This document shows positions 2,777 to 16,020 of a stretch of DNA of 16,669 bases, in pieces. Origin of the DNA: Candidatus Iainarchaeum sp. (GTDB taxonomy: Archaea > Iainarchaeota > Iainarchaeia > Iainarchaeales > JAFCCJ01); assembly GCA_043816965.1 (NCBI GenBank), contig JBDRHK010000063.1, positions 1 through 16,669 on the forward strand, written 5' to 3'. The notes under the pieces were generated by a model, which saw only the letters and a program-made list of their open reading frames with translations, did not search any database and had not been told where the DNA came from. The position numbers were made by a program, and so were the translations under genes. Position 1 is the first letter of the stretch; every line of letters starts with the position of its first letter.

Positions 2777-3397
2777 ATGTCTGATGAAAAGGGTTTTGAG
2801 GAAAAAAAGAAAAGGGCAATTCAGGCGATTATAATTATTGCTTTTGTTTTCATAATAATTGTCGTTATTAGCATAACCCTGGATGAGACGCAGACACAAC
2901 CTGATTTCAAGAATCCGATTTGCGGGAATGGGTTTGTTGATATCTCCGAGGACTGTGACGATAAGATAGGTGGAGAAGGTTGCCCTCCAAATTACGGTTG
3001 CAAATACTGCAAGTGCACTAGATTGGATAAAATTTCTGATGGAATTTCCAATGGAATTGATGATGGAAAAGATGATGGCGTAATTGGCGGAGGAAATGGC
3101 AATATTGATGATGAAAATGTTTCTGAAGATGGAAATGCTATGGGTGGTGGAGGCAGGCCGGATGATGGAACAACTGGTGGGGGAGAGGACATTGCCCCTC
3201 CACAAGCATGCACGATTTCCTCAGAGCTTGTGGGAACAATATGCGAGGCGGAAAATTGCATTGGGGAGATGATTGGGGAATGCTGTGCCGGTGTTTGTGT
3301 TAGCCCAAATGCCGGATTTACCGAATGTTTTAACACATGTGTTCAGCAGGGGCTTTTTTCGCAGGCAGAATGCGAGGTGCTTTGTTCGCCAAGTTAG
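2777..3397 (+). CDS. Membrane-anchored Cys-rich extracellular protein with Gly/Asp-rich linker
   Basis: Basic N-terminus plus one TM helix. CGNGFVDISEDCD resembles the myxococcal Cys-rich repeat. Low-complexity G/D linker and a second Cys cluster at the C-terminus. Confidence 0.8.
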   Translation: MSDEKGFEEKKKRAIQAIIIIAFVFIIIVVISITLDETQTQPDFKNPICGNGFVDISEDCDDKIGGEGCPPNYGCKYCKCTRLDKISDGISNGIDDGKDDGVIGGGNGNIDDENVSEDGNAMGGGGRPDDGTTGGGEDIAPPQACTISSELVGTICEAENCIGEMIGECCAGVCVSPNAGFTECFNTCVQQGLFSQAECEVLCSPS

Positions 3398-3408
3398 GAG
3401 GGATTTGT

Positions 3409-3807
3409 ATGAAAGCTCAGGCTTCGATGGAATATTTGATCATAATTGCTTTTTTGCTGCTGGCTGTCGGCCTGCTTTTTGTTTTATCATTGATAATGTT
3501 CGATGATTCGAGCAGGTTCTCGGCCGCCCAGATAGCGATTTCAAAGCTTAAGAATGCCGCTGACGAAGTTGATGGACTGGGGGAGGGAAACACTAGGATT
3601 GTTGAAATTGTGCTTCCTAAAGGGGTTACGGCAGGAAGGGGGCTTGAGAATGTGATTGAATTTACCATCGGCATTTCAGGGACCACAACATCCGCCAAGG
3701 AATTCCCAAATGCCAAGGTTACTTATGTCAGCCTCCCCATATCAGAGGGAATCCATTTTATAAGGGTGGAAAGCATTGACGGCAATGTACTGCTTTCAGA
3801 GGTCTGA
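3409..3807 (+). CDS. Minor pilin-like protein with class III signal peptide (132 aa)
   Basis: Start re-called to ATG 3409 after SD GGAGGG. MKA/QASMEYLIII has Gln+1 and Glu+5 followed by a hydrophobic helix. Confidence 0.88.
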   Translation: MKAQASMEYLIIIAFLLLAVGLLFVLSLIMFDDSSRFSAAQIAISKLKNAADEVDGLGEGNTRIVEIVLPKGVTAGRGLENVIEFTIGISGTTTSAKEFPNAKVTYVSLPISEGIHFIRVESIDGNVLLSEV

Positions 3808-3811
3808 TGGC

Positions 3812-4174
3812 ATGGAAAAGGGGCAGGTGGCACAGGAAACAATTGCGGCAGTTGCGATTTTGCTAATTGTGTTTGTTCTGGTAACAAACCAATATGTGGA
3901 AAGGTACAATCAGGGGTTGGAATTGGGGGCCTCAAATACGGCAAAGATAGAATGCGAAAAGATTTCAACAATGATTAGCTTTGTAAATATGAGCCCGGGA
4001 AATGATTCTGTCAGGCTGGGCAATATCTCAAATGATTTCAACATTTCAGGCAATGTTGTTAAGATTAGGGACAGGTTCTGTGATTTTTTTGGTGATGCAC
4101 AAGATGCAACGCTTTCGGAGGGAAATGTTTTGATTTATGAGGCAAATGGGGGGGCTGTTGTTGAGAATGTCTGA
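3812..4174 (+). CDS. Minor pilin-like protein with class III signal peptide (120 aa)
   Basis: Start re-called to ATG 3812. MEKG/QVAQETIAAVAILLIVFVLV (Gln+1, Glu+5). Confidence 0.85.
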   Translation: MEKGQVAQETIAAVAILLIVFVLVTNQYVERYNQGLELGASNTAKIECEKISTMISFVNMSPGNDSVRLGNISNDFNISGNVVKIRDRFCDFFGDAQDATLSEGNVLIYEANGGAVVENV

Positions 4175-4649
4175 CAGGGGCCAGGGAATAATGCTTGATT
4201 TGCTGATAGGGGCAATCATTTTTATGCTTGTCCTTATGTCGATAAATGGGTTTTGGGTAGGGGAACTTAACTCCATAGATGACAATATAGAATCCAATGA
4301 GATGAATTTAATTGCTTTCAATGCGATTGAGGGCCTGGTTACTGGGCAAGGCAGCCCTAACGGCTGGGAAACCCTTCCAGAGGCTTCGGTAAATGAGATT
4401 GGGCTGATTGAGGGTAACCGCGTGATTGAGGAAAATAAGCTGGTTGCGTTCCAGAATATGAGTTACAATCTGGCAAGGGAAAAGCTGAAGATAAGGCATT
4501 ATGATTTCTTTTTTGAGTTTGAGGGAATTGACGATGTAAATGCAGGTTTGCCGCCAATGGGGAATGCGGATAAGGTTGTTATCTACAGGAAGGCAAGTTA
4601 CAAGGGGGTGGGTGCTGATGTTAAATTCACGCTCTACAATCTCAGGTAA
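4167..4649 (+). CDS. Minor pilin-like protein with class III signal peptide (160 aa)
   Basis: Start re-called to ATG 4167, overlapping the previous stop. MSDRG/QGIMLDLLIGAIIFMLVL; internal GSPNGWE motif. Confidence 0.85.
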   Translation: MSDRGQGIMLDLLIGAIIFMLVLMSINGFWVGELNSIDDNIESNEMNLIAFNAIEGLVTGQGSPNGWETLPEASVNEIGLIEGNRVIEENKLVAFQNMSYNLAREKLKIRHYDFFFEFEGIDDVNAGLPPMGNADKVVIYRKASYKGVGADVKFTLYNLR

Positions 4650-7089
4650 CAAGCCGTTTAGCGAGGGCGTAAGGCCGAGCAGGGTGTCCTCCGCGAGGAC
4701 GCCATCGTGTAAACGCAGACAGGCGTTTAGCGAGGGCAAAGCCCGAGCAATATCCCTGCGCGTACCCAACAGGGTGCGGAGCAGGGATGGTCCCGTAAAC
4801 TCGGATAGGGGTTTCGTATTTTCAATGGATGCCGCAATGGCGGTTATTCTCCTGATTGTGCTGATGGCGACGGTTGCAAACAGACCTGATTTGGGTGAAA
4901 GCGCCTTTCCGCGGGCGCAGCTAAACCAATTGGTTGATGATTCCATTGCCTCAATGGAAAGCACTGGTTTTATGCTGGAACTCCTCGATACAAACACAAT
5001 AGATGATGCCGCGCTGGAAATTGAGGGCAGGCTTTCATCAGACCTTCCCCAAACTATTGACCTTAATGTCCAGATAACTCAATACACCCTGAACCTTTCC
5101 ACCTGCAGGGCATCACAAACATTTGAGGATTGTTTTTTGGGAAGCGGGCTTGTGATTAGCAGCAGCGGCTCGGCAATTCCGGACAACAGGGCCATCCTGC
5201 ATGGGCGGAGGATTTTTGCAAAAAGGCAGCAGAATGCGGACTGCAATTTAAATTATGGGGCAGGCTTGATCGGGAAAGAATTCGATGAAATTTTGGGGGC
5301 AATAATGTTCTCTGATTACTATGGCCCTCTTTATTTACAGGCGGGGGGTGATTTGAATGTGACCTTTGATGTAAATGTCAGCCCCTCAACAGAACTAAGC
5401 TGTGATGAAAATGTTACCGTTACTTTAGGCATAACTGTCCCTGAGGGGGCAAGAAAACCTGTGGATGTTGTTGAGGTTATGGATGTCAGCGGGAGCATGG
5501 GTGAGTGCGCTATTGCCGATGGAAATGTTATCGCGGAAAGCCAGAGCTCTTTGGGCGGGGGAACATCTTTTTGGAGTTGGTGGGTGTGGAATTACATATA
5601 CCAGAATTGGGTGAACATTGACAGTTTTACAATAAATGATAACGATGCTTTTGATGTATTCCTCGAATGGGAAACCGCATGCGGAGGAAATTGGGCAGGC
5701 TTCAGAAATTGCATTAAAATGTATATTGAGGCACCGGATGGAACCCTTTATGGCTACTATGGGGGAACTCCTGGGGGCGGGGGTTGTTATATTGCGCCAA
5801 GCTCAAGCACTGCTTCGAATAATATTTATTTGGCGGTTCCAGGCTCCTCTTCACAAAATGGTGTCTGGCAGGTGTGGGCATGGAATGATAATCCTGCGAT
5901 AGATGTAAATCTTACTGTAAAGGAAATAGGGGTGCCAATTACAAAGATTGAGGCAATGCAGGCAGTGGGTAAAGAATTCATAGATAATGCCCTGTGGACC
6001 AGCAACGATTACACTGGATTGGTTTCATTTAATAATGTTGCAACACTGAGGCATCAATTAAGCACTGACAGGGAATCTGTAAAGGCACAAATTGACCTTC
6101 TAAATGACGGCGGTTCTACAGCAATAGGTGAGGGGATTTACACTGCGACAGGGGAACTTAGCACATCCCCAAGGGCGAGAAGTGAAAGCCTTGATTTTCA
6201 GGTCCTCCTTTCTGACGGGCAGAGCAATTCAGGGAGAAGTTCTGCAGGTGCAGCCCAGGATGCTGCAGACAATAATATTATAATTTTTACAATAGGGTTT
6301 GGGACAACAATAAATGAGGCAGAGCTGACAACTATCGCAAATTTAACCGGGGGGCAGTATTACTATGCGGCAGACCAAAATGCATTGCAGGACGCATATG
6401 ATTTAATTGCGCAGACTATTCAGGCTGCAGCAGCTGACGCAAATGTAGTTGTCCCTGTGATTACTGATGTTAACATCATGGAATCCGGAGGCGGGGTTAT
6501 TGTCGGGCAATCCATAATTTTTGATGTGAATAATGTTGGCGGTGGCCAGAGATGGGAGTCCAGCTATATACTTAATTTCCCCTGTTCAAATGCAAACACC
6601 TGTGGAAGTGACGCCATAAGCTTCCCTGGGGAGGGCGCCTATTTCGAGTATGTAGATGATGAGGGCTATCACCAGATAGATTTCAATGTGCAGACGATAA
6701 TTCCATTCCTCACAAGGGATTTGACCGTGGATATTTTCGCCGGGGAGATTACAGGGCCTGATGACATTTACCTTGATGTCAATGTCGCAAACATTGCGGA
6801 TTTGGATACCCCCTCAACAACCCTTAATTTCTATGCGGATTTTGTCGGGGGAACGCTCCTTGCAAGCAGGGCTGTTAATGCCATGTGCGGGGGGGAATCT
6901 GCAGGATGTGTAAATTCTGAACAGATATTCAGTGCGGTAAATATTACGCAGGAAGGGGTGATAGTTGCCGTGATAAATGAGGATGGCTCCATAAGCGAGT
7001 GCCCGGGAAACAATGAGGATATTGTAAACTGTTACGCAGGCTCTGTCCCGCAGTTCTATGTGATTGACTACTATGTATGGAGGAGGTAA
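4618..7089 (+). CDS. Large pilin-like adhesin: class III signal, vWA (MIDAS) domain with internal insertion, C-terminal CARDB-like domain
   Basis: DRG/FVFSMDAAMAVILLIVLMA class III motif. vWA motifs DVVEVMDVSGSM, GLVSFN, GGSTAIGEGI, VLLSDGQSN, IFTIGFG and IANLTGGQYY. CARDB-like DLTV...VANIA...INEDGSISE..GNNE. Start uncertain: ATG 4618 (after GGGGTGGGTG) or GTG 4774. Confidence 0.85.
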   Translation: MLNSRSTISGNKPFSEGVRPSRVSSARTPSCKRRQAFSEGKARAISLRVPNRVRSRDGPVNSDRGFVFSMDAAMAVILLIVLMATVANRPDLGESAFPRAQLNQLVDDSIASMESTGFMLELLDTNTIDDAALEIEGRLSSDLPQTIDLNVQITQYTLNLSTCRASQTFEDCFLGSGLVISSSGSAIPDNRAILHGRRIFAKRQQNADCNLNYGAGLIGKEFDEILGAIMFSDYYGPLYLQAGGDLNVTFDVNVSPSTELSCDENVTVTLGITVPEGARKPVDVVEVMDVSGSMGECAIADGNVIAESQSSLGGGTSFWSWWVWNYIYQNWVNIDSFTINDNDAFDVFLEWETACGGNWAGFRNCIKMYIEAPDGTLYGYYGGTPGGGGCYIAPSSSTASNNIYLAVPGSSSQNGVWQVWAWNDNPAIDVNLTVKEIGVPITKIEAMQAVGKEFIDNALWTSNDYTGLVSFNNVATLRHQLSTDRESVKAQIDLLNDGGSTAIGEGIYTATGELSTSPRARSESLDFQVLLSDGQSNSGRSSAGAAQDAADNNIIIFTIGFGTTINEAELTTIANLTGGQYYYAADQNALQDAYDLIAQTIQAAAADANVVVPVITDVNIMESGGGVIVGQSIIFDVNNVGGGQRWESSYILNFPCSNANTCGSDAISFPGEGAYFEYVDDEGYHQIDFNVQTIIPFLTRDLTVDIFAGEITGPDDIYLDVNVANIADLDTPSTTLNFYADFVGGTLLASRAVNAMCGGESAGCVNSEQIFSAVNITQEGVIVAVINEDGSISECPGNNEDIVNCYAGSVPQFYVIDYYVWRR
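4655..4800 (+). repeat. Tandem pair of GC-rich structured units (REP/palindromic-element-like or RNA motif)
   Basis: Direct repeat CGTTTAGCGAGGGC-(GTAA/AAA)-G(G/C)CCGAGCA at 4655 and 4724. Each unit has its own second hairpin and closes with TAAAC (4710-4714, 4796-4800), complementary to its opening GTTTA. Confidence 0.8.
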
Positions 7090-7090
7090 A

Positions 7091-8065
7091 ATGAACCAGA
7101 AAGGAATATTTTTCACAATTATGGCTTTTCTCCTGGCATTTAACGTTATTCTGCTTATAGGTGTTGCAACAGAAAATAACCGTGACAACCAGGAGGTATT
7201 TACTTTAATTAGTTCCTTTATTTCAGTCAACAACAAGTCCAATAACATTTACAGGGATGCGATTCTTTACGACCAAACAGGCCCTGCTGCGGCAATTGAA
7301 CAGAGGATTCTTCCCTTCAGCATGGCACTTGATGAGAACAGGGTTAATATCACGGCAAATCTTCCTGTGGAAAGCTCGAAGATGAATTCCTACATCGACA
7401 GCCTTAATGCAATGAAAATATTCCTTGAGGATTCCAACTACGGCAATGCATATGACGGCATTGAGGTAAGCATAGACACCATACAGGATTCGAGATGGGG
7501 GGGAACCGCTGATTCTATCTCGTTTATCGCATATCCTTTTTGCCTCGAATACAGGATTTCCGGGCTTAACCAAATAGGGTATGGGCCTGGCAATTGCACA
7601 GATATTTTTGATGTATCAAATATCAGGAGATTTGACCTGAATATTATGGTTACCAACAGCAACGAGGACCTTAATTATGTGAGCTGCACTTTTGGTGGGG
7701 TGGCTGGATGCCCGCAAAATTCCTTTGACCCAATGGACCCACTGCCTTTCTTTGAGCTGGAAATTGATGACACTGACTGCGGGAGTTGCGCATTTGGTGC
7801 AGCTGACTTATTGGTGAGCACCCATTTTGACCCTGCCGAAAGCAATGACCTCTCTATATGGTGCAGCCCTGGGACAGATTGCCCTTACTCTGAAACAATT
7901 TCTGTTTCAATCGGGAATGGATTTTCTGTGGCAAGGGATGGCGGCATTCCGGTTTCAACTGAAATGGCGGTTGATTTCAAGTCAGGGATTAGAGGCATTG
8001 AGGCAAATGATTTCAACTACACTCTTACAAAACCCTCTGCCCAGATAACAAAAAGATATAGGTGA
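7091..8065 (+). CDS. Pilin-like protein with class III signal peptide and Cys-containing acidic ectodomain (324 aa)
   Basis: ATG 7091 after SD AGGAGGT. MNQKG/IFFTIMAFLLAFNVILLIGVA. Confidence 0.85.
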   Translation: MNQKGIFFTIMAFLLAFNVILLIGVATENNRDNQEVFTLISSFISVNNKSNNIYRDAILYDQTGPAAAIEQRILPFSMALDENRVNITANLPVESSKMNSYIDSLNAMKIFLEDSNYGNAYDGIEVSIDTIQDSRWGGTADSISFIAYPFCLEYRISGLNQIGYGPGNCTDIFDVSNIRRFDLNIMVTNSNEDLNYVSCTFGGVAGCPQNSFDPMDPLPFFELEIDDTDCGSCAFGAADLLVSTHFDPAESNDLSIWCSPGTDCPYSETISVSIGNGFSVARDGGIPVSTEMAVDFKSGIRGIEANDFNYTLTKPSAQITKRYR

Positions 8066-8069
8066 TTAT

Positions 8070-9272
8070 GTGGACCCGGAACTTGTGAGTAAGGCTGTTT
8101 TTTTGCTTGGCATACTTATTGTCGGGTTTGTGCTTCTTGCAGTAATTCCTATCCCCGGATTTCCAACTGATGGGAAACTGGAATTTACTTCCCTTAATCT
8201 TGAGAAGGAAGATGTTGCCCTTGGTGAGAAAGTTGCGATTGATATTGCCGCAAGCGGCGGAAACGGGGTTAAGGAGATTACTGTTGAGGGCGGGGGAATA
8301 ATGGAAAGGATTGATTGCGGAATGGGCGCGGAATGCAGCAAAAAAATTGAGCTGATTTTCAGGCAGGTTGGAAACTATTCATTAAAGGTTAAGGCTGTTG
8401 ATTCCGGGGGAACTTCCATTGTTGAAACAGTACATGTGCGGGTTTCCGGCAGCGGAAAAAAATGTTCAGACCAGACCCTTTTCGGCCAATGTTCTGCGCA
8501 AAGGCCTTTAATCTGCATAAATGGGGAGCTCCTTTCTGACTGCGAAAGTTGCGGCTGTCCTCTAGAGGGGATTTGTGAAGGGGGGGTATGCAAATCTGTT
8601 GCTGTTGATGCGAAAATTGCGAGATTTGATTCATTGAAAAAAAGGGTTCTTGATGATGAGGAAATTGGGTTTGTTCTCCAGGTAAAGCCTGCAGGGAATT
8701 TGGAGATTCAGCAGGGGGCGCCATACAAACTCAGGGTTGAATTAGAGGGGGCCGATAGAAATTTTATGCTGGAGTATGATATTGTTCTTGAGCAATCCCT
8801 CTCCTGCTGCAGGGGGGAATATGCGGTGCAGGGAATTATTCCATCCGGAGAGCTTTCTGTTGGGGATTATTCTGCAACTGCAGTTTTGCTGGACCCGAGG
8901 GAAAGGGATGGGAATAAGGCTGTGTTTGACAGCAGGGTTGTGGGGGAATTTGTTTCTGTTTTTGAGAGGGATGATGTGCCGCCATCAAAACCACAGGCTT
9001 TAAATTTTACAAAAACTGAAGATGGAATTAGGCTTAGCTGGTCTGCCAACAGCGAAGCAGATCTTGCAGGCTACAACATCTATAAATCGACAGATGTCGG
9101 GGAGTTATATATTCTTTATTCGCTTTCCGAAACTGTCAGCTCCGAGGAAACCTCCCTGGATTTAACAATTTCAGGGAAGGGAAGATTTCACTTCACAATA
9201 ACTGCATTTGACCTTTCAGGGAATGAATCGGAATACGGCCCAGGCCTTTTGGTTGAGTTGGATGGGGTTTAA
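8070..9272 (+). CDS. Membrane-anchored surface protein: Ig-like, Cys-rich and C-terminal fibronectin type III domains
   Basis: GTG start after GGTGA, and an N-terminal TM helix. GNYSLKVKAVDSGG is an Ig/PKD-like strand, followed by a Cys cluster. FN3 signature PPSKPQAL...LSWSANSEADLAGYNIY...TAFDLSGNES. Confidence 0.85.
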   Translation: MDPELVSKAVFLLGILIVGFVLLAVIPIPGFPTDGKLEFTSLNLEKEDVALGEKVAIDIAASGGNGVKEITVEGGGIMERIDCGMGAECSKKIELIFRQVGNYSLKVKAVDSGGTSIVETVHVRVSGSGKKCSDQTLFGQCSAQRPLICINGELLSDCESCGCPLEGICEGGVCKSVAVDAKIARFDSLKKRVLDDEEIGFVLQVKPAGNLEIQQGAPYKLRVELEGADRNFMLEYDIVLEQSLSCCRGEYAVQGIIPSGELSVGDYSATAVLLDPRERDGNKAVFDSRVVGEFVSVFERDDVPPSKPQALNFTKTEDGIRLSWSANSEADLAGYNIYKSTDVGELYILYSLSETVSSEETSLDLTISGKGRFHFTITAFDLSGNESEYGPGLLVELDGV

Positions 9273-9317
9273 ATATGAGTAATTACATAAATTTAGTGAG
9301 TTTTGGTTGTGAGAAAA

Positions 9318-10994
9318 ATGGCTAAAAAAAAGGGATTGTTTTCGGATTTTTTCAAAAATCTGGGCAACATATTCAAAAGGAAGAAAAAGGCCCCTGACAG
9401 GAGAGCGCCAGCAAAGAAGAAACTTTCCAGCAAGAGTAAAAAGATTATTGAGGAAACAAGGAAAAAACTCGAAAAACTGGAACAGGAGTCCAGAATTAAG
9501 GAATCTGCGGCATCTCAGGTAAAAAATATGCCCCTGGAAAAGCCGCCTGTGCCAACCAAAGAGGAATTTTTGGGGCCATTGTATTCTAAAAAGGGGGCAG
9601 AGGTTGCTGGAAAAAAGGAAATACCAACCAAAGAGGAATTCTTAGGGCCATTGTATTCGAGCCAGGAGAAACCGGTGGAAAAAGTTTTTGGGGAGGATTC
9701 ACCAAGAACAAAAAGCAAATTTGAGAGAAGTTTTGATGTTGAAAAAATTCCGGTAAAAAAAGAGGACGTAAAGGAAAGACCAAAGGAAAAGATTAAAACA
9801 GGGGTGGAGATTTTTGCCGCAAAAAAGATATCCCCAAAAAAGAATGTTGTGGTGAAGAAAGCCGAGATTAAGAAGCCAAAAGTTAAGCCCAAGTCAGGGG
9901 TAAAAATTCCCAAAAAAGTTATCCCCGAAAAAATTCCTGCGAAAGTTATTCTTGAAAAAAAGCCTGAGCCAAAACCAATTATGGCTGAGAAGCCGGTGGA
10001 AGAAAAACCTAAATCTGAAAAGATGCCTGTTGAAAAACTTGTGGTGGAAAGAGCTGCCCCTGTTGCCAAGCCAGCGCCGACAAGGCCAGCGCCGATGAGA
10101 TCAGCACCTATGCCTGAGAGGCCAATGGCGGCAAGTGTTGTTTCCACGATACAAAACTTTGATGAGCAGATATCGATTACGAAGGAACTCATAAAGAGCC
10201 TTAACATGGACTTTTTCAAGCGAAGGATTACTGAGGAGGAGTACAGGAGAAAAACTTTGGAATACAGGGAAAAGATGAAGCTCCTGGAGATAAGGAGGAG
10301 GAATGTCCTGAAGGCGCAATCAGACGGGGCTGCTGTTGCCCAGGCTTTCAGGCCTGTGACTGCTGCCGAAACAAGGAATGCAGTAAGCCAGACAAAAGTG
10401 CACCAAATCCTAAAGGCAAAGGCAAGGGGGAAGATTGATGACCATAGGCTAAATGAGCTGGAAAATAAGTTGACTGAACTCGCAAAGAGATACAATCTCT
10501 CTGAAAAGGAGCTTGAGCAGGATGTTCTGGATATTGATACCAGCAAAACAATTGAGAGCTTCAACAAGCTTGTTTCATTGATTGATTTGGAAAGGGAGGC
10601 CAACAGGAGGCTGGACCAGGTCAGGATTGTCGGTGTGCCCAAGGCATTTAAGGAATCCGCAAAGGAGGTCGAGGCGATTAAGGGAATAGCAACAGAAATA
10701 AAGAAGCACAGGATTGTTACGGATTTTGATAAGATTGTTGCCATTGTTGGCCAGCAGGGGAAGCTGAAACTGAGCGAGCTTTCAGCACAGCTCAAAATAG
10801 ACAAAAGGACCTGTTCAGGGCTGCTCCCTGACCTTGAGAAGGAGGGGCTTCTGGAGATTAAATACCCTGCATTTGGGGAGGTTTCGGTACAGCTTCCGGG
10901 CTATGATGATATGCAGAAGGTTTTGAAGGAGAAGAAAAAGGCCGAGGATAAGGCGAGGAAATTGCAGGAGAATCAAAAGAAAAAGAATAAATAG
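9318..10994 (+). CDS. Lys/Pro/Glu-rich cytoplasmic protein with coiled coils and a C-terminal winged-helix-like domain
   Basis: ATG 9318, with TATA-like TTTAAATA at 9268-9275. Low-complexity N-half. IVTDFDKIVAIV..QGKLKLSELSAQLKI...LEKEGLLEIKYP fits a wHTH pattern. Confidence 0.8.
   Translation: MAKKKGLFSDFFKNLGNIFKRKKKAPDRRAPAKKKLSSKSKKIIEETRKKLEKLEQESRIKESAASQVKNMPLEKPPVPTKEEFLGPLYSKKGAEVAGKKEIPTKEEFLGPLYSSQEKPVEKVFGEDSPRTKSKFERSFDVEKIPVKKEDVKERPKEKIKTGVEIFAAKKISPKKNVVVKKAEIKKPKVKPKSGVKIPKKVIPEKIPAKVILEKKPEPKPIMAEKPVEEKPKSEKMPVEKLVVERAAPVAKPAPTRPAPMRSAPMPERPMAASVVSTIQNFDEQISITKELIKSLNMDFFKRRITEEEYRRKTLEYREKMKLLEIRRRNVLKAQSDGAAVAQAFRPVTAAETRNAVSQTKVHQILKAKARGKIDDHRLNELENKLTELAKRYNLSEKELEQDVLDIDTSKTIESFNKLVSLIDLEREANRRLDQVRIVGVPKAFKESAKEVEAIKGIATEIKKHRIVTDFDKIVAIVGQQGKLKLSELSAQLKIDKRTCSGLLPDLEKEGLLEIKYPAFGEVSVQLPGYDDMQKVLKEKKKAEDKARKLQENQKKKNK
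9552..9658 (+). repeat. 35-bp direct repeat (9552-9586, 9624-9658) encoding PTKEEFLGPLYS twice
   Basis: Copies are 72 bp apart and differ only at synonymous sites (TTT/TTC, TTG/TTA). Confidence 0.9.
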
Positions 10995-11029: not shown

Positions 11030-14000
11030 ATGGTTGATAAACTTTTGAAAAAATATAATCTGGAATCTGAAAAGGTAAAGATTGAGATAAGCATTGTCCA
11101 CAAGGAGGGTTGTTATGTCCTCAGTTATTTGCTCGACATTCCTGAGTATGGGGAAGGCACTGAGGCCATGCTTCATGGGCTTAAGAAAGACCTTATAATG
11201 GACACCAAAATCCAGACCGAAAGAATGCTGGAGCCGAAGTTTATTGATGAGCTTAAGGAAAGGTTCAGGACAAGGGCACTTACAATCATGAACAAAAAAT
11301 TGCCTGATCTTGACCTTGAAACAAAGAATGCGCTTATTGGAATTCTCCTGAGTGAAATGCTTGGTTTGGGGAAGATAGAATTTTTGCTCAGCGACGGTAA
11401 CCTTGAGGAGATTGTTGTCAATTCATCCAAGGAGCCTGTCTGGGTTTACCACAAGGAATTCAGGTGGCTGCAGACAAATGTTTTCATAAAGCCCGAAACA
11501 GAGGTGCAGAACTATGCGAGCATTATTGCAAGAAGGGTGGGTAAGCAGATAACAATTCTCGAACCACTCCTTGATGCCCACCTGATTACAGGTGACAGGG
11601 CAAATGCAACTTTATTTCCGATTTCAGGGAAGGGAAACACCATTACAATCAGGAGATTTAAGAGGGATCCATGGACTGTTGTTGATTTCATAAAAAACAA
11701 GACAACCAATTCAGACGTAATGGCCTTGATTTGGCTAGCGATGCAGTATGAGCTGAATATAATTCTGAGCGGGGGAACCGCATCAGGAAAGACATCTTTC
11801 ATGAATGTATGCATGCCATTTATCCAGCCTAATAACAGGGTTATTTCAATTGAGGACACAAGGGAATTGTCTTTGCCAGACTTTCTCCATTGGGTACCGA
11901 TGACAACAAGGGAGCCAAATCCTGAGGGGAAAGGTGGTGTCTGTCTTTACCCTGGAACCTGGTTTGTTACCGGCGACGGTGAAATAAACGAAATATCTGA
12001 ATACGTTGAAAACCGGCTTGCAACCAGGCCGACTCAGAGAATAGAAAAGGGAGTTCTGGCTGGGGAGGGGCGAAGTGACACGGTTTTGGCTGGTGACCCG
12101 GAAAAATTCAGTTACCAACCAGAGAAAATCAAGATTGTATCAAGAGTGACGGAAAGGGAATATGTTTGCAAGGTTGAATGTGAAAATGGCGAAACAATGG
12201 TGCTGACGGAAAACACCAAACTGCCCGTGATTGGAGAAAACGGGAAAATTGAATTGCTTACGCCGGGAGAGATAAAACAAGGAAAATTTTATTTGCCTGC
12301 CTTTACCAAGCTTGACATAGAAGGAAGTATTCAGGAGATAAATGCACTGGAACTTTTCTCCGAAGGCGAATTCTATGTCGTTAACAAACTTAACCTGTTT
12401 CTGGATTTAATCAGGGAGCAAAAAGAAAGGGGGCTGACCCTTAAAGAAATAGCAAAAATGTGCGGAATGAAAAGACAGGCATTTAATTGGTACAAAAAAA
12501 CAGGCATTGTAAATATTGGTGTGTTAAAGAAACTTACCGAAAAAAGTAGGTTAATTAACATGGAACGGTTGGAAACGGAGGTTTCTTTGGTTAAAGCAAG
12601 GGGACAGGGAGCAAAAACAGTCAGGATACCAAAACAGATTGATGAGGACTTGGCATACCTTGCAGGGTTTATTTTGGCTGAAAAAAGCCTAAGTCCAAAT
12701 GGAATCCATATTACCCAAAAAGATGAGCTGCCAGAAATTGAGCGCTTGGTCAAAAAAATCTTTGATATTTCTGTAATCCATAAAAAAAGGGAATACAACC
12801 AGTATAGGATTCTCTCACAAATAGTTATGAAAATAATGTGCAATGTTTTTGGGGCCACAAAATCAAAACAGATAAGGGTTCCAAAATGCATTATGAGAAG
12901 CCATGACCAGGTCATAGCATCGTTCCTGGCAGGATATATTGATGGTGACGGTACAGTTGGCAGAAAAAGAGTTTCATTGGCGACAGGAAACAAAGAGGCT
13001 GCAATAGAATTCAAATACCTGTTAACAAGATTGGGTGTGTGGAGCAGAATCCAAAAAGCGAAACGAGCATGGGTTGTCAACATCTGCACAAGAGAAGACG
13101 TGAAAAAAGCATGTAAAAAAATCGGTTTCAGGCTTGTGAAAAATAAAATACGGGCCGAACTAGTGAAAAAAACAAATTACAGCTACAACACTAAGAGAAA
13201 CAGGATTCCTGCAATGATGCTGCACACATATCTGAAGGGGCTGATGCAGCCATTGAGTGTTGAAGAAAAAAGAAAACACCTTTATCATGTTGCCTACAAC
13301 CAAACGAGTTTACCGAAAAACTATTTGCAAAAAATGTTAATGCATACAAAACTTAGCAAAAAAGAAATTGAAAATATGCAATTGTTTTTAAGGGAGGATC
13401 TGGAATTTGTAAGAATAACTGATGTAAAAATAATTAGAAACAAGAAAAATATTCCAAGCTATGACATTACGCCAGAGAAATCAACATACTTTGTTGCAGG
13501 CATAAACAATCTGACGCTTGTCATGGATACAATGCTTGACCTTCTTGTTAACAGTTTGAGAATGAGGCCTGACAGGATTATTGTTGGAGAGGTAAGAAGG
13601 CAAAGGGAAGCTGAAGTTTTGTTTGAGGCAATGACCACAGGGCACAGTGCCTATACAACAGTACACGCAAACACTGCTGATGAAACCATTAGAAGGCTTA
13701 CAAACCCGCCAATTGAACTTCCAGCCAGCATGCTTGATTCTGTTCACCTTAATGTTGTGATGTTTAGGAACAGGAGATTGGGAGTTAGGAGGGTTTTGGA
13801 ACTTGCTGAATTTGTCCCTGAGAAAAGAGGGGATACTGAATCCATAAAGGCAAATGTCCTCTATAGGTGGATGCCTGCCCAGGATGTTATTGGTAAGCAT
13901 GCGGATAGTGTGAGATTTTATGATGAACTTTCCCTGCATACAGGGCTTACGATTGATGAGATAAACAAGGAGATTGCATCCAAGAAAAAGATTCTTGAAT

Positions 14001-14119
14001 GGATGATAAAGCACGACCACAGGGATTTGGAGCATGTTGGGAGAATAATGGCGACATATTACATGGACAAGGAAGAAATAGAGGCATTAGTCAAAAAGGA
14101 CGCCGATTTCAAGCTGTGA
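11030..14119 (+). CDS. Type IV pilus assembly ATPase (TadA/CpaF/VirB11/FlaI family), intein-containing; about 500 aa after splicing
   Basis: EEIVVN, ITIRRF, Walker A SGGTASGKTS, Asp box ISIEDTREL, LRMRPDRIIVGEVR (Walker B) and His box TGHSAYTTVHA. Followed by two platform genes. Confidence 0.95.
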   Translation: MVDKLLKKYNLESEKVKIEISIVHKEGCYVLSYLLDIPEYGEGTEAMLHGLKKDLIMDTKIQTERMLEPKFIDELKERFRTRALTIMNKKLPDLDLETKNALIGILLSEMLGLGKIEFLLSDGNLEEIVVNSSKEPVWVYHKEFRWLQTNVFIKPETEVQNYASIIARRVGKQITILEPLLDAHLITGDRANATLFPISGKGNTITIRRFKRDPWTVVDFIKNKTTNSDVMALIWLAMQYELNIILSGGTASGKTSFMNVCMPFIQPNNRVISIEDTRELSLPDFLHWVPMTTREPNPEGKGGVCLYPGTWFVTGDGEINEISEYVENRLATRPTQRIEKGVLAGEGRSDTVLAGDPEKFSYQPEKIKIVSRVTEREYVCKVECENGETMVLTENTKLPVIGENGKIELLTPGEIKQGKFYLPAFTKLDIEGSIQEINALELFSEGEFYVVNKLNLFLDLIREQKERGLTLKEIAKMCGMKRQAFNWYKKTGIVNIGVLKKLTEKSRLINMERLETEVSLVKARGQGAKTVRIPKQIDEDLAYLAGFILAEKSLSPNGIHITQKDELPEIERLVKKIFDISVIHKKREYNQYRILSQIVMKIMCNVFGATKSKQIRVPKCIMRSHDQVIASFLAGYIDGDGTVGRKRVSLATGNKEAAIEFKYLLTRLGVWSRIQKAKRAWVVNICTREDVKKACKKIGFRLVKNKIRAELVKKTNYSYNTKRNRIPAMMLHTYLKGLMQPLSVEEKRKHLYHVAYNQTSLPKNYLQKMLMHTKLSKKEIENMQLFLREDLEFVRITDVKIIRNKKNIPSYDITPEKSTYFVAGINNLTLVMDTMLDLLVNSLRMRPDRIIVGEVRRQREAEVLFEAMTTGHSAYTTVHANTADETIRRLTNPPIELPASMLDSVHLNVVMFRNRRLGVRRVLELAEFVPEKRGDTESIKANVLYRWMPAQDVIGKHADSVRFYDELSLHTGLTIDEINKEIASKKKILEWMIKHDHRDLEHVGRIMATYYMDKEEIEALVKKDADFKL
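11942..13528 (+). mobile_element. Intein (529 aa, ORF residues 305-833) with LAGLIDADG homing endonuclease and HTH insert
   Basis: Block A CLYPGTWFVTGDG. Endonuclease blocks LAYLAGFILAEK, FLAGYIDGDG and YLLTRLGV. Block F SYDITPEKSTYFVAG; ends LVMD before Thr. Removing it restores the family-typical GKGGV-TMLDLLVNSLRMRPD. Confidence 0.93.
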
Positions 14120-14123
14120 TTCA

Positions 14124-15023
14124 ATGGATCCAAAAACATCCATACCGATGAACCCTTTCCCCTTTCCGGTTCTCTATACTTTAAGTACCAGATTCACCGG
14201 TTTTGGCTTTAAGGTTGCAGGAGCTTTCCCATACCTGAAAATGGAATTGGCACAGGCTGAAATAGACCTTCATATTGAGGAATATGGGGCAATAATGTTT
14301 TTGCTCGCAGCTATCTATTTTGGGTTTGGTGCACTTACCGCTTTTCTGTTTTCTGTTGGTTTAAAGCTTGATCTATTTACGTCCATTGCAATATCAATTA
14401 CTGCAGGACTTCTTTTGGGGCTTTTTATCATTGTTCAGCTGAGCATGTTCCCGAAAATAAAGGTGAAAAAGAAGGTGAGGAACCTTGAAAGGAATTTAAT
14501 TGATGCATTGAGGACAATGCTTGTTGAGATAAAATCAGGGGTAAGCCTTTTTGATGCTATTTCAATGGTTTCAGATGGTGAGTTCGAGGGCGTGAGCAAG
14601 GAATTCAGAAAAACAGTTGAAAAGATTAATACAGGGGAATTGCAGGAGCAGGCAATGGAAGATATGGCCTCAAATAATCCCTCGCTCTTTTTCAGGAGGT
14701 CAGTATGGCAGATAGTGAATGGCCTGAAGGCAGGGGCAGATGTGAGTGTTGTAATGGGCGCATTGGTGGATTCCATGGGCAAGGAGCAGAGAAACCAGAT
14801 AAGGGAATATGGTTCTGCAATGAGGCTTATGTCCCTGATTTACATGATGTTAGGGGTGATAATTCCTGCACTTGGCTTTACTTTTATCATAATTCTGGCC
14901 ACTTTCCCCCAAACTTCCATAGGGGAATGGCTTTTCTGGTTCCTTTTGCTTTTCATCCTGGCGGCACAGTTCATGTTTCTGGGATTTATGAAATCAAGGA
15001 GACCAAATTTAATGAGTGAGTGA
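14124..15023 (+). CDS. Type II secretion F-domain membrane platform protein (TadB/TadC/FlaJ-like)
   Basis: Multiple TM helices; LERNLIDALRTMLVEIKSGVSLFDAI...GVSKEF pattern; directly downstream of the ATPase. Confidence 0.9.
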   Translation: MDPKTSIPMNPFPFPVLYTLSTRFTGFGFKVAGAFPYLKMELAQAEIDLHIEEYGAIMFLLAAIYFGFGALTAFLFSVGLKLDLFTSIAISITAGLLLGLFIIVQLSMFPKIKVKKKVRNLERNLIDALRTMLVEIKSGVSLFDAISMVSDGEFEGVSKEFRKTVEKINTGELQEQAMEDMASNNPSLFFRRSVWQIVNGLKAGADVSVVMGALVDSMGKEQRNQIREYGSAMRLMSLIYMMLGVIIPALGFTFIIILATFPQTSIGEWLFWFLLLFILAAQFMFLGFMKSRRPNLMSE

Positions 15024-15024
15024 C

Positions 15025-16020
15025 ATGGTTGAGATATACAAAAGGCTGGCGGCATTTCTCCCGGATTCCATTGTGGGCGCTTTCAAAAAGCAGATGGATT
15101 ACCTGGATATTGATATCAGTGAGAAAAGGTTTGTTGGTTTTCTTTTTATTTATGGCTTGATTCTTAGCTTTTTCCTTGCATATCTTGTTGAAATTTTCAA
15201 TATACTTTCTTATTTTATTGCATTCCCTTTCTTCTTCCTGCTTTTTACGGGTGGAACCTATCTCTGGCTCAGCATTGCTGCAGAATCAAAGGGGAAATTT
15301 GTTGAGAGCATTTTGCCTGATGCCCTGCAGCTTGTTGCATCAAACATGAAATCAGGCCTTACAACAGAAAGGGCTTTGCTGCTTTCCGCAAGGCCTGAAT
15401 TTGGCCCATTGGAAAATGAGCTTCGGGATGCGAGCAAAAGGATAATGGCAGGTGCAAGGATTGATGAGGCATTAAATGAGATTCCAAAAAGCATAAAGTC
15501 AGTCATTCTGGAAAGAACTATTTGGCTGGTTTCAAAAGGGATTAGTAGCGGTGGGCAGATAGCGAACTTGCTGATTCAGCTGAGTGATGATTTAAGGGAC
15601 CAGCTTGCGCTAAGAAGGGAGATAGCGGCAAATATTTCGATTTACATAATGCTGATTTTCTTTGCGGCAGCACTGGGGGGGCCTGTTCTTTTCGGGATAA
15701 GCAGCTTTATTGTTGAAATTTTAACCAAACAAATGGCAACTATGCCGGAAATAAACGCCTCAAACATTCCAGGGGGAATGGGGTCAAATGTCTCCCAATT
15801 TTCCGGGGATAAGGAGCCGATAAGTGTTGAATTTGTCCAGATGTTTGTCATGATTATGCTTGTTACAACAAGCCTCTTTGCGTCGCTAACCATCGGCGTG
15901 ATTAATACAGGCAAGGAACAGGGTGGCCTAAAATACTTCCCGATAATACTTGTTGTCGCATTTATCCTGTTTTTTGGAATAAGGATGCTGCTTGCAAGCG
16001 CTTTCTCTAATTTGGTTTAA
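15025..16020 (+). CDS. Second type II secretion F-domain membrane platform protein (TadC-like)
   Basis: ESILPDALQLVASNMKSGLTTERAL...EFGPLENEL and SSGGQIANLL; TM helices. ATG 15025 preferred over GTG 15016. Confidence 0.9.
   Translation: MVEIYKRLAAFLPDSIVGAFKKQMDYLDIDISEKRFVGFLFIYGLILSFFLAYLVEIFNILSYFIAFPFFFLLFTGGTYLWLSIAAESKGKFVESILPDALQLVASNMKSGLTTERALLLSARPEFGPLENELRDASKRIMAGARIDEALNEIPKSIKSVILERTIWLVSKGISSGGQIANLLIQLSDDLRDQLALRREIAANISIYIMLIFFAAALGGPVLFGISSFIVEILTKQMATMPEINASNIPGGMGSNVSQFSGDKEPISVEFVQMFVMIMLVTTSLFASLTIGVINTGKEQGGLKYFPIILVVAFILFFGIRMLLASAFSNLV

Follow-up and report, generated by a model that had tools for sequence, protein, structure and literature searches.

An intein interrupting a secretion ATPase

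The window, the whole stretch of 16,669 nt analysed here (contig JBDRHK010000063.1 of Candidatus Iainarchaeum sp., assembly GCA_043816965.1), contains an open reading frame (ORF) at 11030..14119 encoding a 1029 amino acid (aa) protein, in which a secretion ATPase is interrupted by a 529 aa intein (P0001; 11942..13528) that starts with Cys and ends with Asp. The interrupted gene, its parts and the two genes that follow it lie on the forward strand. The 304 aa N-extein (11030..11941) ends in PEGKGGV, with Val at position -1, while the C-extein, 196 aa plus the stop codon (13529..14119), consists of Thr+1 (13529-13531), followed by MLDLLVNSLRMRPDRIIVGEVR in the Walker-B region and then by the His-box, and has a Pfam T2SSE match at residues 834-893 of the protein. 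The two ends of the ATPase match Pfam T2SSE (1.8e-28) and the NCBIfam models FlaI (3e-69) and TadA (6.7e-44); as both of the latter scores are under the equivalog cut-offs, this T2SSE-family host is termed 'FlaI/TadA-like'. The insertion point is in the catalytic core of the enzyme, after the Asp-box IEDTRE and before the Walker-B region RPDRIIVGE. The source genome has five T2SSE-family matches in all, four of them besides the interrupted ATPase.

The intein is composed of a splicing (Hint) domain split by a homing-endonuclease region. Residues 1-125 (11942..12316) make up the N-terminal half of the Hint domain and contain blocks A (Cys1, CLYPG) and B, with modelled beta-strands up to residue 121; the C-terminal half, residues 485-529 (13394..13528), contains blocks F and G, with modelled strands at 487-499, 506-511, 516-520 and 525-528. 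By the partition used here, these two halves constitute a 170 aa splicing domain. Between them, residues 126-484 (12317..13393) comprise a helical DNA-binding part and a LAGLIDADG core. The first LAGLIDADG motif, YLAGFILAEK (residues 239-248, 12656..12685), has Glu247 as its acidic residue, with A246, E247 and K248 each present in at least 90% of the rows of the intein alignment A1; the second, FLAGYIDGDGT (residues 328-338, 12923..12955), has Asp336, and D334, G335, D336 and G337 are invariant in the same alignment. Residues 324-395 match Pfam LAGLIDADG_3 (1.8e-16), and a profile search of the PDB matches the endonuclease domains of VMA inteins (8.6e-17).

The extent of the element can be defined through comparison with an uninterrupted allele. 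When the N-extein was searched in 31 related genomes, matches were found in all 31, and that of a same-genus genome (G152, locus L022) belongs to a protein of 500 aa, exactly 1029 minus 529. Its N-extein is 93% identical to that of the window, and it reads PEGKGGV|TMLDLLVNSLR across the point of insertion. Because this allele fixes them, Cys1, Asp529 and Thr+1 stand as the ends of the intein without any reading of motifs, and the rejoining of the flanks as GKGGV-TMLDLL, with Asp as the last intein residue and Thr at +1, which the initial annotation had deduced, is borne out. The 18 further best orthologues, 61-71% identical, likewise have no insert, such that the intein is missing from all 19 examined.

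Splicing motifs

Cys1 is encoded by TGT (11942-11944) directly after GKGGV. Block B consists of T89-E90-N91-T92 (12206..12217; codons ACG GAA AAC ACC), with Lys93 next; it retains the Thr of position B:7 and has Thr in place of the His of B:10. The initial annotation recognised the motif LTENTK correctly, although the coordinates it gave cover TENT only and the full motif occupies 12203-12220. For a profile-profile alignment (hhalign) the comparator was canonical, namely the second of the inteins found in the host proteins P0006, P0007, P0008 and P0010 (S1...TPDH...HN|T); here T89 pairs with the Thr of block B, and T92 with the His of TPDH. Block F reads Y507-D508-I-T-P-E-K-S-T515-Y516-F517 (13460..13492), with YDIT beginning at 13460 and S-T-Y-F at 13481-13492; Asp F:4 is kept, while Thr is found at the usual His and Tyr at the usual Asn position. 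Block G, T525-L-V-M528-D529 (13514..13528), has Met for the penultimate His and Asp for the terminal Asn, the codons GTC ATG GAT ACA specifying V-M-D|T with GAT at 13526-13528. Cys1, YDIT, STYF, the GAT codon and the M-D|T junction thus all lie where they had originally been placed, and the claim that none of the three usual catalytic histidines is present also stands: these positions are occupied by Thr, Thr and Met, and the 170 aa splicing domain contains no His at all. Cyclisation of Asn is the textbook release step of inteins, and the Carboxydothermus RIR1 intein is another that reportedly ends in Asp.

One alternative end was considered and rejected. The global hhalign alignment put the terminal H-N of the comparator on Asn522-Asn523, leaving LTLVMD outside the intein. 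Allele L022 shows that LTLVMD is not extein; in addition, the last modelled strand is 525-528, solved inteins align as far as residue 529, and residues 522-523 vary within the family described below, so this end was discarded.

The initial annotation had advised verification of the GAT codon in reads. A contig from a public DNA run (X2; 297 nt, 13398-13694) has no differences from the window, the codon included, and possibly derives from the source sample itself, so it lends little independent support. Contigs from public runs cover parts of the region, none of them extending over 11928-12247, where Cys1 and block B are encoded. An exact match to 12780-13013 comes from an RNA-library contig; this does not show transcription.

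Predicted fold

An AlphaFold2 model of the intein, generated from a 16-row alignment, has a mean predicted local distance difference test score of 90.3 and a predicted template modelling score of 0.90. The top Foldseek matches are endonuclease-bearing archaeal inteins, TliVMA (6.3e-26) and PI-PkoII (6.9e-24). Superposition with VIA-align gives Z scores of 30.1 for TliVMA (7qsu), 29.0 for PI-PkoII (2cw7, model residues 1..529 on chain residues 1..537), 23.6 for PI-PfuI (1dq3), 20.3 for PabCDC21-1 (6rpp, chain residues 1..164) and 17.5 for KlbA (2jmz), and every one of these superpositions spans model residues 1 to 529, from the first to the last residue of the solved intein. The predicted structure is that of a Hint fold with a nested LAGLIDADG endonuclease and, the final strand of the model being 525-528, M528-D529 would occupy the places of the usual His-Asn. 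TliVMA (7qss/7qsu), PI-PkoII and PI-PfuI share this layout, in which a DNA-binding region and LAGLIDADG core interrupt the Hint domain, but are only 16-22% identical to the window intein in sequence; they presumably keep the canonical catalytic residues.

Conservation of the intein family

Among 5.8 billion proteins, a word-indexed search identified 14 others covering the whole intein at 40-76% identity, all of them TadA-like ATPases from DPANN archaea, some named Micrarchaeota or Woesearchaeota by NCBI. Together with the window intein these form a family of 15, in each of which the reading frame is intact. Val or Ile precedes Cys1 in 15/15, and in every member block B takes the form (L/I/V)-T-(E/D)-N-T-(K/R), with Thr rather than His at B:10. 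Likewise, block F reads Y-D-(I/V/L)-T-P followed by (S/H/F)-(T/K)-Y-F throughout, with Asp508 invariant and T or K at the His position (515), and the intein always ends in (V/I)-(M/L/Q/E)-D, the penultimate residue never being His. The +1 residue is Thr in 14 members and Ser in one. Cys1, T89, N91, T92, K/R93, D508, Y516, D529 and Thr/Ser+1 are consequently kept in all 15, a recurrence that is far more than chance would produce; blocks A and B are also the same in P0028, a sixteenth member that is truncated. The splicing domain is free of His in eight members and contains one to four in the other seven, with no His position common to more than two. Judged from these relatives, the window intein is a member of a conserved lineage; the possibility raised at the outset that it might be a degenerate singleton is at odds with a 15-member family bearing the same residues, and the homologues that the initial annotation had proposed collecting all share T-(E/D)-N-T-(K/R), (S/H/F)(T/K)YF and (M/L/Q/E)D|(T/S).

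Other positions distinguish the family from its relatives. Cys76 (15/15) and Cys80 (14/15), encoded within 12167-12181, and Arg72 (15/15; 12155-12157) are conserved only here, the relatives outside the family having V/I/L at 76, T/L at 80 and Pro at 72. From the register of the modelled strands 74-80 and 85-88, Cys76 should lie across a hairpin from Thr89.

Nucleotide comparisons were made using codon alignments of those loci with DNA available. Among the five closer, non-identical pairs, synonymous differences are saturated (proportion of synonymous sites differing, pS, 0.61-0.81), and the corresponding nonsynonymous proportion (pN) amounts to 0.08-0.13 for the splicing domain, compared to 0.13-0.18 for the endonuclease region and 0.12-0.26 for the two exteins. 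The ratio of nonsynonymous to synonymous substitution rates (dN/dS) in the splicing domain is 0.06-0.08 where dS is computable. In six distinct loci the catalytic codons themselves vary synonymously: Cys1 is TGT or TGC; T89 is ACG, ACT, ACA or ACC; T92 is ACC or ACT; D529 is GAT or GAC; and +1 is ACA, ACG or ACT. The single G-to-A change that would turn Asp529 into Asn is found in none of these six. The residues of the splicing domain are, on the evidence of these codon comparisons, under strong purifying selection.

The nature of the +1 residue also differs between occupied and empty sites. In the 19 intein-less orthologues it is T (2), S (8), E (2), Q (3), G (1), A (1), K (1) or N (1), and hence Thr or Ser in 10/19, against 15/15 in the intein-bearing proteins (Fisher's exact test, one-sided p = 0.0018, on rows that are not independent and with relatedness uncorrected).

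Distribution and mobility

Full-length orthologous inteins (E <=1e-160) are present in 6/215 genomes of the phylum, that of the window included, spread across five families, and also in proteins named Woesearchaeota by NCBI. No orthologous intein exists in the same-genus genome G152, though its host gene is the closest relative of that in the window. This patchy distribution and the conservation of both LAGLIDADG acidic residues suggest a mobile homing intein. Between the window and loci L008 or L009, the splicing domain is 78-80% identical at the amino acid level, compared to 62-68% for the host ATPase; this greater conservation of the intein than of its host, alongside an intein-less host 93% identical to that of the window, is indicative of horizontal movement, the former being compatible with a later horizontal spread of the intein.

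Some hosts accommodate more than one element. P0006, P0007, P0008 and P0010 each have their second, canonical intein directly after the I-E-D of the Asp-box (columns about 340-851 of alignment A1). These second inteins have Ser1, T-P/Q-D-H-S and a (C/A)-H-N|T end; that of P0006 is a 184 aa mini-intein, whereas the other three are ~500 aa in length and include an endonuclease.

A wider clade of Asp-ended inteins

When 1.84 billion cluster representatives were scanned in full with HMMER, 1344 proteins were obtained at E <=0.001, only three of them representatives of the family itself, after which values drop to 2e-37. The fetched proteins, 173 excluding P0001, were aligned to a hidden Markov model (HMM) of the family, yielding 294 matched stretches. 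Two trees were calculated from these with FastTree (LG+gamma, midpoint root, local support values only), using a sample picked for similarity to the query: the first from 48 stretches spanning blocks B to F that were chosen among the 294, and the second from 52 sequences, realigned with MAFFT and including P0082, P0175, P0176 and P0035. The values quoted are from the second tree; those of the first are similar.

The nearest relatives of the window family, a sister group, interrupt other archaeal T2SSE ATPases upstream of Walker A, at a site before T-I-R-K-F (P0017, P0029-P0032, P0036, P0041, P0062 and P0074). All nine keep the block-B His, in the form T-x-(N/E)-H, yet end in (F/Y/H)-D|(T/S/C). 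Several of their hosts carry two or three inteins.

A further group, consisting of P0082 (residues 304-800) and of P0175 and P0176, which came from a second search, is inserted just before the Asp-box (K-V-V|C...V-E-D|(S/T)-x-E-D-T). In all three, at 41-42% identity, block B reads V-T-P-N-T-K-I-P and the intein ends in V-E-D|(S/T), such that the signature of the window intein recurs at another site. Pro95 and Pro511 are specific to these two His-less groups. Residue 516 is Tyr in the family (15/15) and the P0082 group (3/3), Phe or Tyr in the sister clade and Asn or Ser in other inteins. A related intein in the PilB3-like ATPase P0035 (residues 332-814) lies 12 residues upstream of the window's site; it has T-P-N-S in block B, Asn at the block-F Asp position (Y-N-I-A-P) and, with boundaries as read in this analysis, an apparent A-T-N-P-N|T end, and may be degenerate.

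The window family (support 0.999) and the T-I-R-K-F group (1.0) are each monophyletic; the His-less ATPase inteins group together with P0035 included (0.947), and all secretion-ATPase inteins of this kind form a clade (0.91) with three or more insertion sites besides that of the window. Asp is the terminal residue in 27/28 sampled members, P0035 with its Asn being the exception, and is combined with loss of His B:10 in 18 of these 27. The terminal Asp, a kind of ending that the initial annotation had described as rare, is a trait of the whole secretion-ATPase intein clade and not peculiar to this copy. On this midpoint-rooted tree, terminal Asp arose first; loss of the block-B His followed in one branch and was a separate event from that in the inteins of MCM proteins. 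The latter, 12 inteins without His B:10, form a separate clade (0.969), with Thr (10) or Asn (2) at this position and a conserved Trp-Lys ~12-14 residues later; the MCM identity of 11 scanned proteins is confirmed by Pfam. Examples among the representative matches are P0019, P0037, P0043, P0057, P0061 and P0071. Going by the sequences now in databases, CDC21-1-type inteins without this His far outnumber the 'small group' of published accounts.

Comparison with known inteins

Each individual deviation of the window intein has a precedent. The parts of one review drawn upon here (PMC4031507) call His B:10 the most conserved intein residue and mention two inteins without it, one a pseudogene and the other Tko CDC21-1, which splices regardless, with Lys58 compensating. 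The same sections state that Asp or Gln can stand for the terminal Asn G:7 through cyclisation, that the block-F His is 'less conserved' and that active inteins without a penultimate His exist (PMC4031507). Similarly, excerpts of a second paper describe several inteins without the block-B or penultimate His, and regard Ser/Cys1 and an Asn, Gln or Asp at the C-terminal end as the only residues present throughout (PMC7664689), while a passage of a third reports that a bulky side chain at -1 can make up for a missing block-B His (PMC6333167). CDC21-1-type inteins are treated as the only active natural group lacking His B:10 in the relevant passages of two of these sources (PMC4031507, PMC6333167).

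The initial annotation drew attention to Tko CDC21-1, a comparison that holds for block B, as the MCM inteins do have T or N there, but not for ancestry, as the tree separates the two clades. Both types are class 1, with Cys1, Thr B:7, a residue other than His at B:10 and Thr+1, and the block B of MCM inteins, T-x-(N/E)-(T/N), often then K-L, resembles the TENTKL of the window. By contrast, the Tko CDC21-1 type differs in its MCM/CDC21 host and site, its H-(N/S)-F in block F and its H-N|T end, and the W-K conserved after B:10 in MCM inteins is L-L in the window intein. The Pab and Mma Pol II and the CIV RNR inteins are likewise comparable in that a residue still able to cyclise replaces their terminal Asn, going by the excerpts of PMC4031507 and PMC7664689; unlike the clade described here, in which Asp is fixed, the class 1 cases ending in Asp or Gln are reported as isolated and retain the block-B His.

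The host also invites comparison with the class 2 intein of Mja KlbA, the hosts of both belonging to the superfamily of archaeal VirB11/FlaI-like secretion ATPases. However, KlbA inteins have Ala1, T-x-x-H and S-N|C and insert in the His-box (TGHEG|CMGT), whereas the window intein, with Cys1, no His and M-D|T, is found ~60 residues upstream of that site. Of the features defining class 1, the window family has Cys1, Thr/Ser+1 and a terminal Asp, an accepted variant of Asn, and lacks His B:10 and the penultimate His G:6. Its Cys1, Met, Asp and Thr contrast with the Ala1, Ser G:6, Asn G:7 and Cys+1 of class 2; its Cys1 and Asp F:4 distinguish it from class 3, which has no position-1 nucleophile and a W-C-T motif with Cys at F:4; and its Thr/Ser+1, present in 15/15, separates it from bacterial intein-like (BIL) domains, which have no +1 nucleophile and mainly undergo cleavage according to the excerpts of PMC7664689.

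Among the best-ranked literature matches, no paper was found discussing an intein in these secretion or pilus ATPases, the one that uses the word 'intein' at all being about DNA gyrase, and for Asp-ended inteins only general reviews were returned. Nothing in the literature searched describes, as a fixed combination, a splicing domain devoid of His and an Asp end at two or more insertion sites in one host family.

Proposed splicing mechanism and alternative explanations

From the ends, fold, conservation and distribution described above we infer, with a probability of roughly three in four, that this is a working class 1 intein, splicing by means of a histidine-free active site and Asp cyclisation; alternative splicing chemistry, one of the options raised in the initial annotation, remains the best reading of the sequences. 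In this scheme, the N-S acyl shift at Val(-1)-Cys1 would be assisted by the retained Thr89 (B:7) and Asp508 (F:4), with the Thr92 hydroxyl, the Asn91 amide and strain from the beta-branched Val/Ile at -1 standing in for His B:10. The N-extein would then be transferred to Thr+1, after which attack by the Asp529 carboxyl would generate a succinic anhydride, rather than the succinimide formed from Asn, and release the intein; the clade-specific Tyr516 may assist here, and no block-F or penultimate His would take part. As Asp anhydride chemistry needs no base to activate an amide nitrogen, this may be what permits loss of these two histidines. Pro95 and Pro511 of the two His-less groups and the family-specific Arg72, Cys76 and Cys80 are further candidates for a part in splicing. 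A final O-N shift would give a 500 aa ATPase with the same junction as the intein-less allele.

A number of observations weigh against this scheme. The window intein scores 20.3 bits against a cut-off of 35.8 for Pfam Intein_splicing and, in the same manner, 18.6 against 24.5 for NCBIfam intein_Nterm; the 130 aa N-terminal splicing half matches no intein among PDB chains by sequence at E up to 10; and a profile search of the PDB finds endonuclease domains only, plus a weak match to PI-PfuI (0.0039). The candidate compensating residues, which could be read from clade-specific alignment columns, are just four in number when conservation in both His-less groups is required (N91, P95, P511 and Y516). 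A Lys at T92+22 or +23 is not conserved in the family, residue 115 being K, D, Q, S, G or C, with the equivalence to Lys58 (B:10+22/23) taken from a review passage and its exact mapping uncertain. Thr+1 could travel with the intein through co-conversion during homing, and part of the intein's conservation could stem from selection acting on the endonuclease, or from having spread horizontally only recently, and not from splicing. All family sequences originate from uncultured archaea, and the argument for splicing is an evolutionary one throughout.

The suggestion that the intein is decaying and disables its ATPase, also made in the initial annotation, is very improbable. With four other T2SSE-family matches in the genome, an inactive copy could perhaps persist for a while, and one of the His-less inteins mentioned in the excerpts of PMC4031507 is indeed a pseudogene; against this, frames are intact in 15/15, pN is as low as 0.08-0.13 where synonymous differences are saturated, conservation is higher in the splicing domain than in the exteins, and the deviant residues are themselves invariant, with their codons changing synonymously. 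It is only somewhat less unlikely that the element has been domesticated as an insert that stays in the mature ATPase or merely cleaves, and is kept for some host function. The absence of every canonical helper residue would fit such a fate, as would the position between conserved ATPase boxes, and the splicing of the family is itself deduced from sequence. Domestication nevertheless gives no reason for an invariant Cys1, terminal Asp and +1 nucleophile, nor does it sit well with the conserved catalytic residues of the endonuclease, the 6/215 distribution typical of a mobile element, or the lack of an insert in the closest relative of the host gene.

A third possibility, still doubtful though less remote than these two, would refine the proposal of a working His-free intein rather than replace it: splicing might be slow or conditional, as the initial annotation had also suggested, varying with pH, temperature or redox state, and so gate filament assembly, owing either to the missing helper histidines or to a redox switch formed by Cys76 and Cys80 with Cys1. 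Naturally Gln-ended Pol II inteins splice slowly, and a slow third step need not be harmful, according to the sections drawn on of PMC4031507; furthermore, the two cysteines are restricted to the family, and Cys76 is predicted to be opposite Thr89. However, none of the computed results bears on rate or condition-dependence, and the P0082 group lacks these cysteines although it shares Thr at B:10 and the terminal Asp. Most orthologues (19 of the 19 examined) have no intein, so a splicing gate is dispensable to the host.

An extension of this idea is similarly tentative: that this filament-ATPase intein lineage exchanged its C-terminal nucleophile from Asn to Asp, lost every active-site His in one branch and became a pH- or redox-responsive switch for pilus assembly in host-attached DPANN cells. 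A response to pH or redox would be anticipated because Asp cyclisation depends on protonation and because two conserved Cys lie beside block B. Were this the case, Cys1, Thr B:7, Asp F:4 and Thr+1, together with an Asp able to cyclise, would suffice for splicing.

A naturally selected lineage without His and Asn at two or more sites is a ready-made test of which residues splicing needs, would show how Asp (anhydride) chemistry replaces succinimide formation, and could potentially serve protein engineering as a histidine-free scaffold, perhaps one tunable by pH. In annotation, such ATPases may be miscalled as 1000 aa fusions or pseudogenes, since the Pfam intein model scores the element under its threshold.

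Genomic context

Downstream of the ATPase gene are two overlapping genes for T2SSF (FlaJ/TadC-like) platform proteins (14124-15023 and 15016-16020; Pfam T2SSF 1e-15 and 4.6e-16), which complete the filament-assembly core. These, together with a VWA-domain protein and pilin-like ORFs upstream, identify the region as a type IV filament locus. A search of the window against Rfam found no RNA family. Several small ORFs at 3337-4649 and 7064-8065, without Pfam matches, have N-termini resembling archaeal class III (pilin) signal peptides (K-A-Q-A-S-M-E-Y-L-I-I-I, E-K-G-Q-V-A-Q-E, D-R-G-Q-G-I-M and Q-K-G-I-F-F-T); they were recognised by what is taken to be the archaeal pilin signal motif (K-A-Q-A-S-M-E-Y-L, then a hydrophobic stretch), and on this resemblance are likely the filament subunits of the locus. 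The VWA-domain protein (4540-7089) and a weakly fn3-like protein (8070-9272) precede a 563 aa protein rich in Lys, Pro and Glu (9303-10994), which is directly upstream of the ATPase and has a weak C-terminal winged-helix (MarR/HTH_24) match.

A paralogous T2SSE ATPase of the source genome (L044; G000 contig C15:13500-18500, minus strand) is likewise interrupted, its 1043 aa ORF containing a KlbA-type class 2 intein with an endonuclease. This intein starts A-L-N-G-E-T-L after NTGHEG, has T-K-D-H as its block B and ends F-V-S-N|C-M-G-T-V-H-A-N; at the site of the window intein, the paralogue is continuous (G-E-I-T-M-D-I-L).

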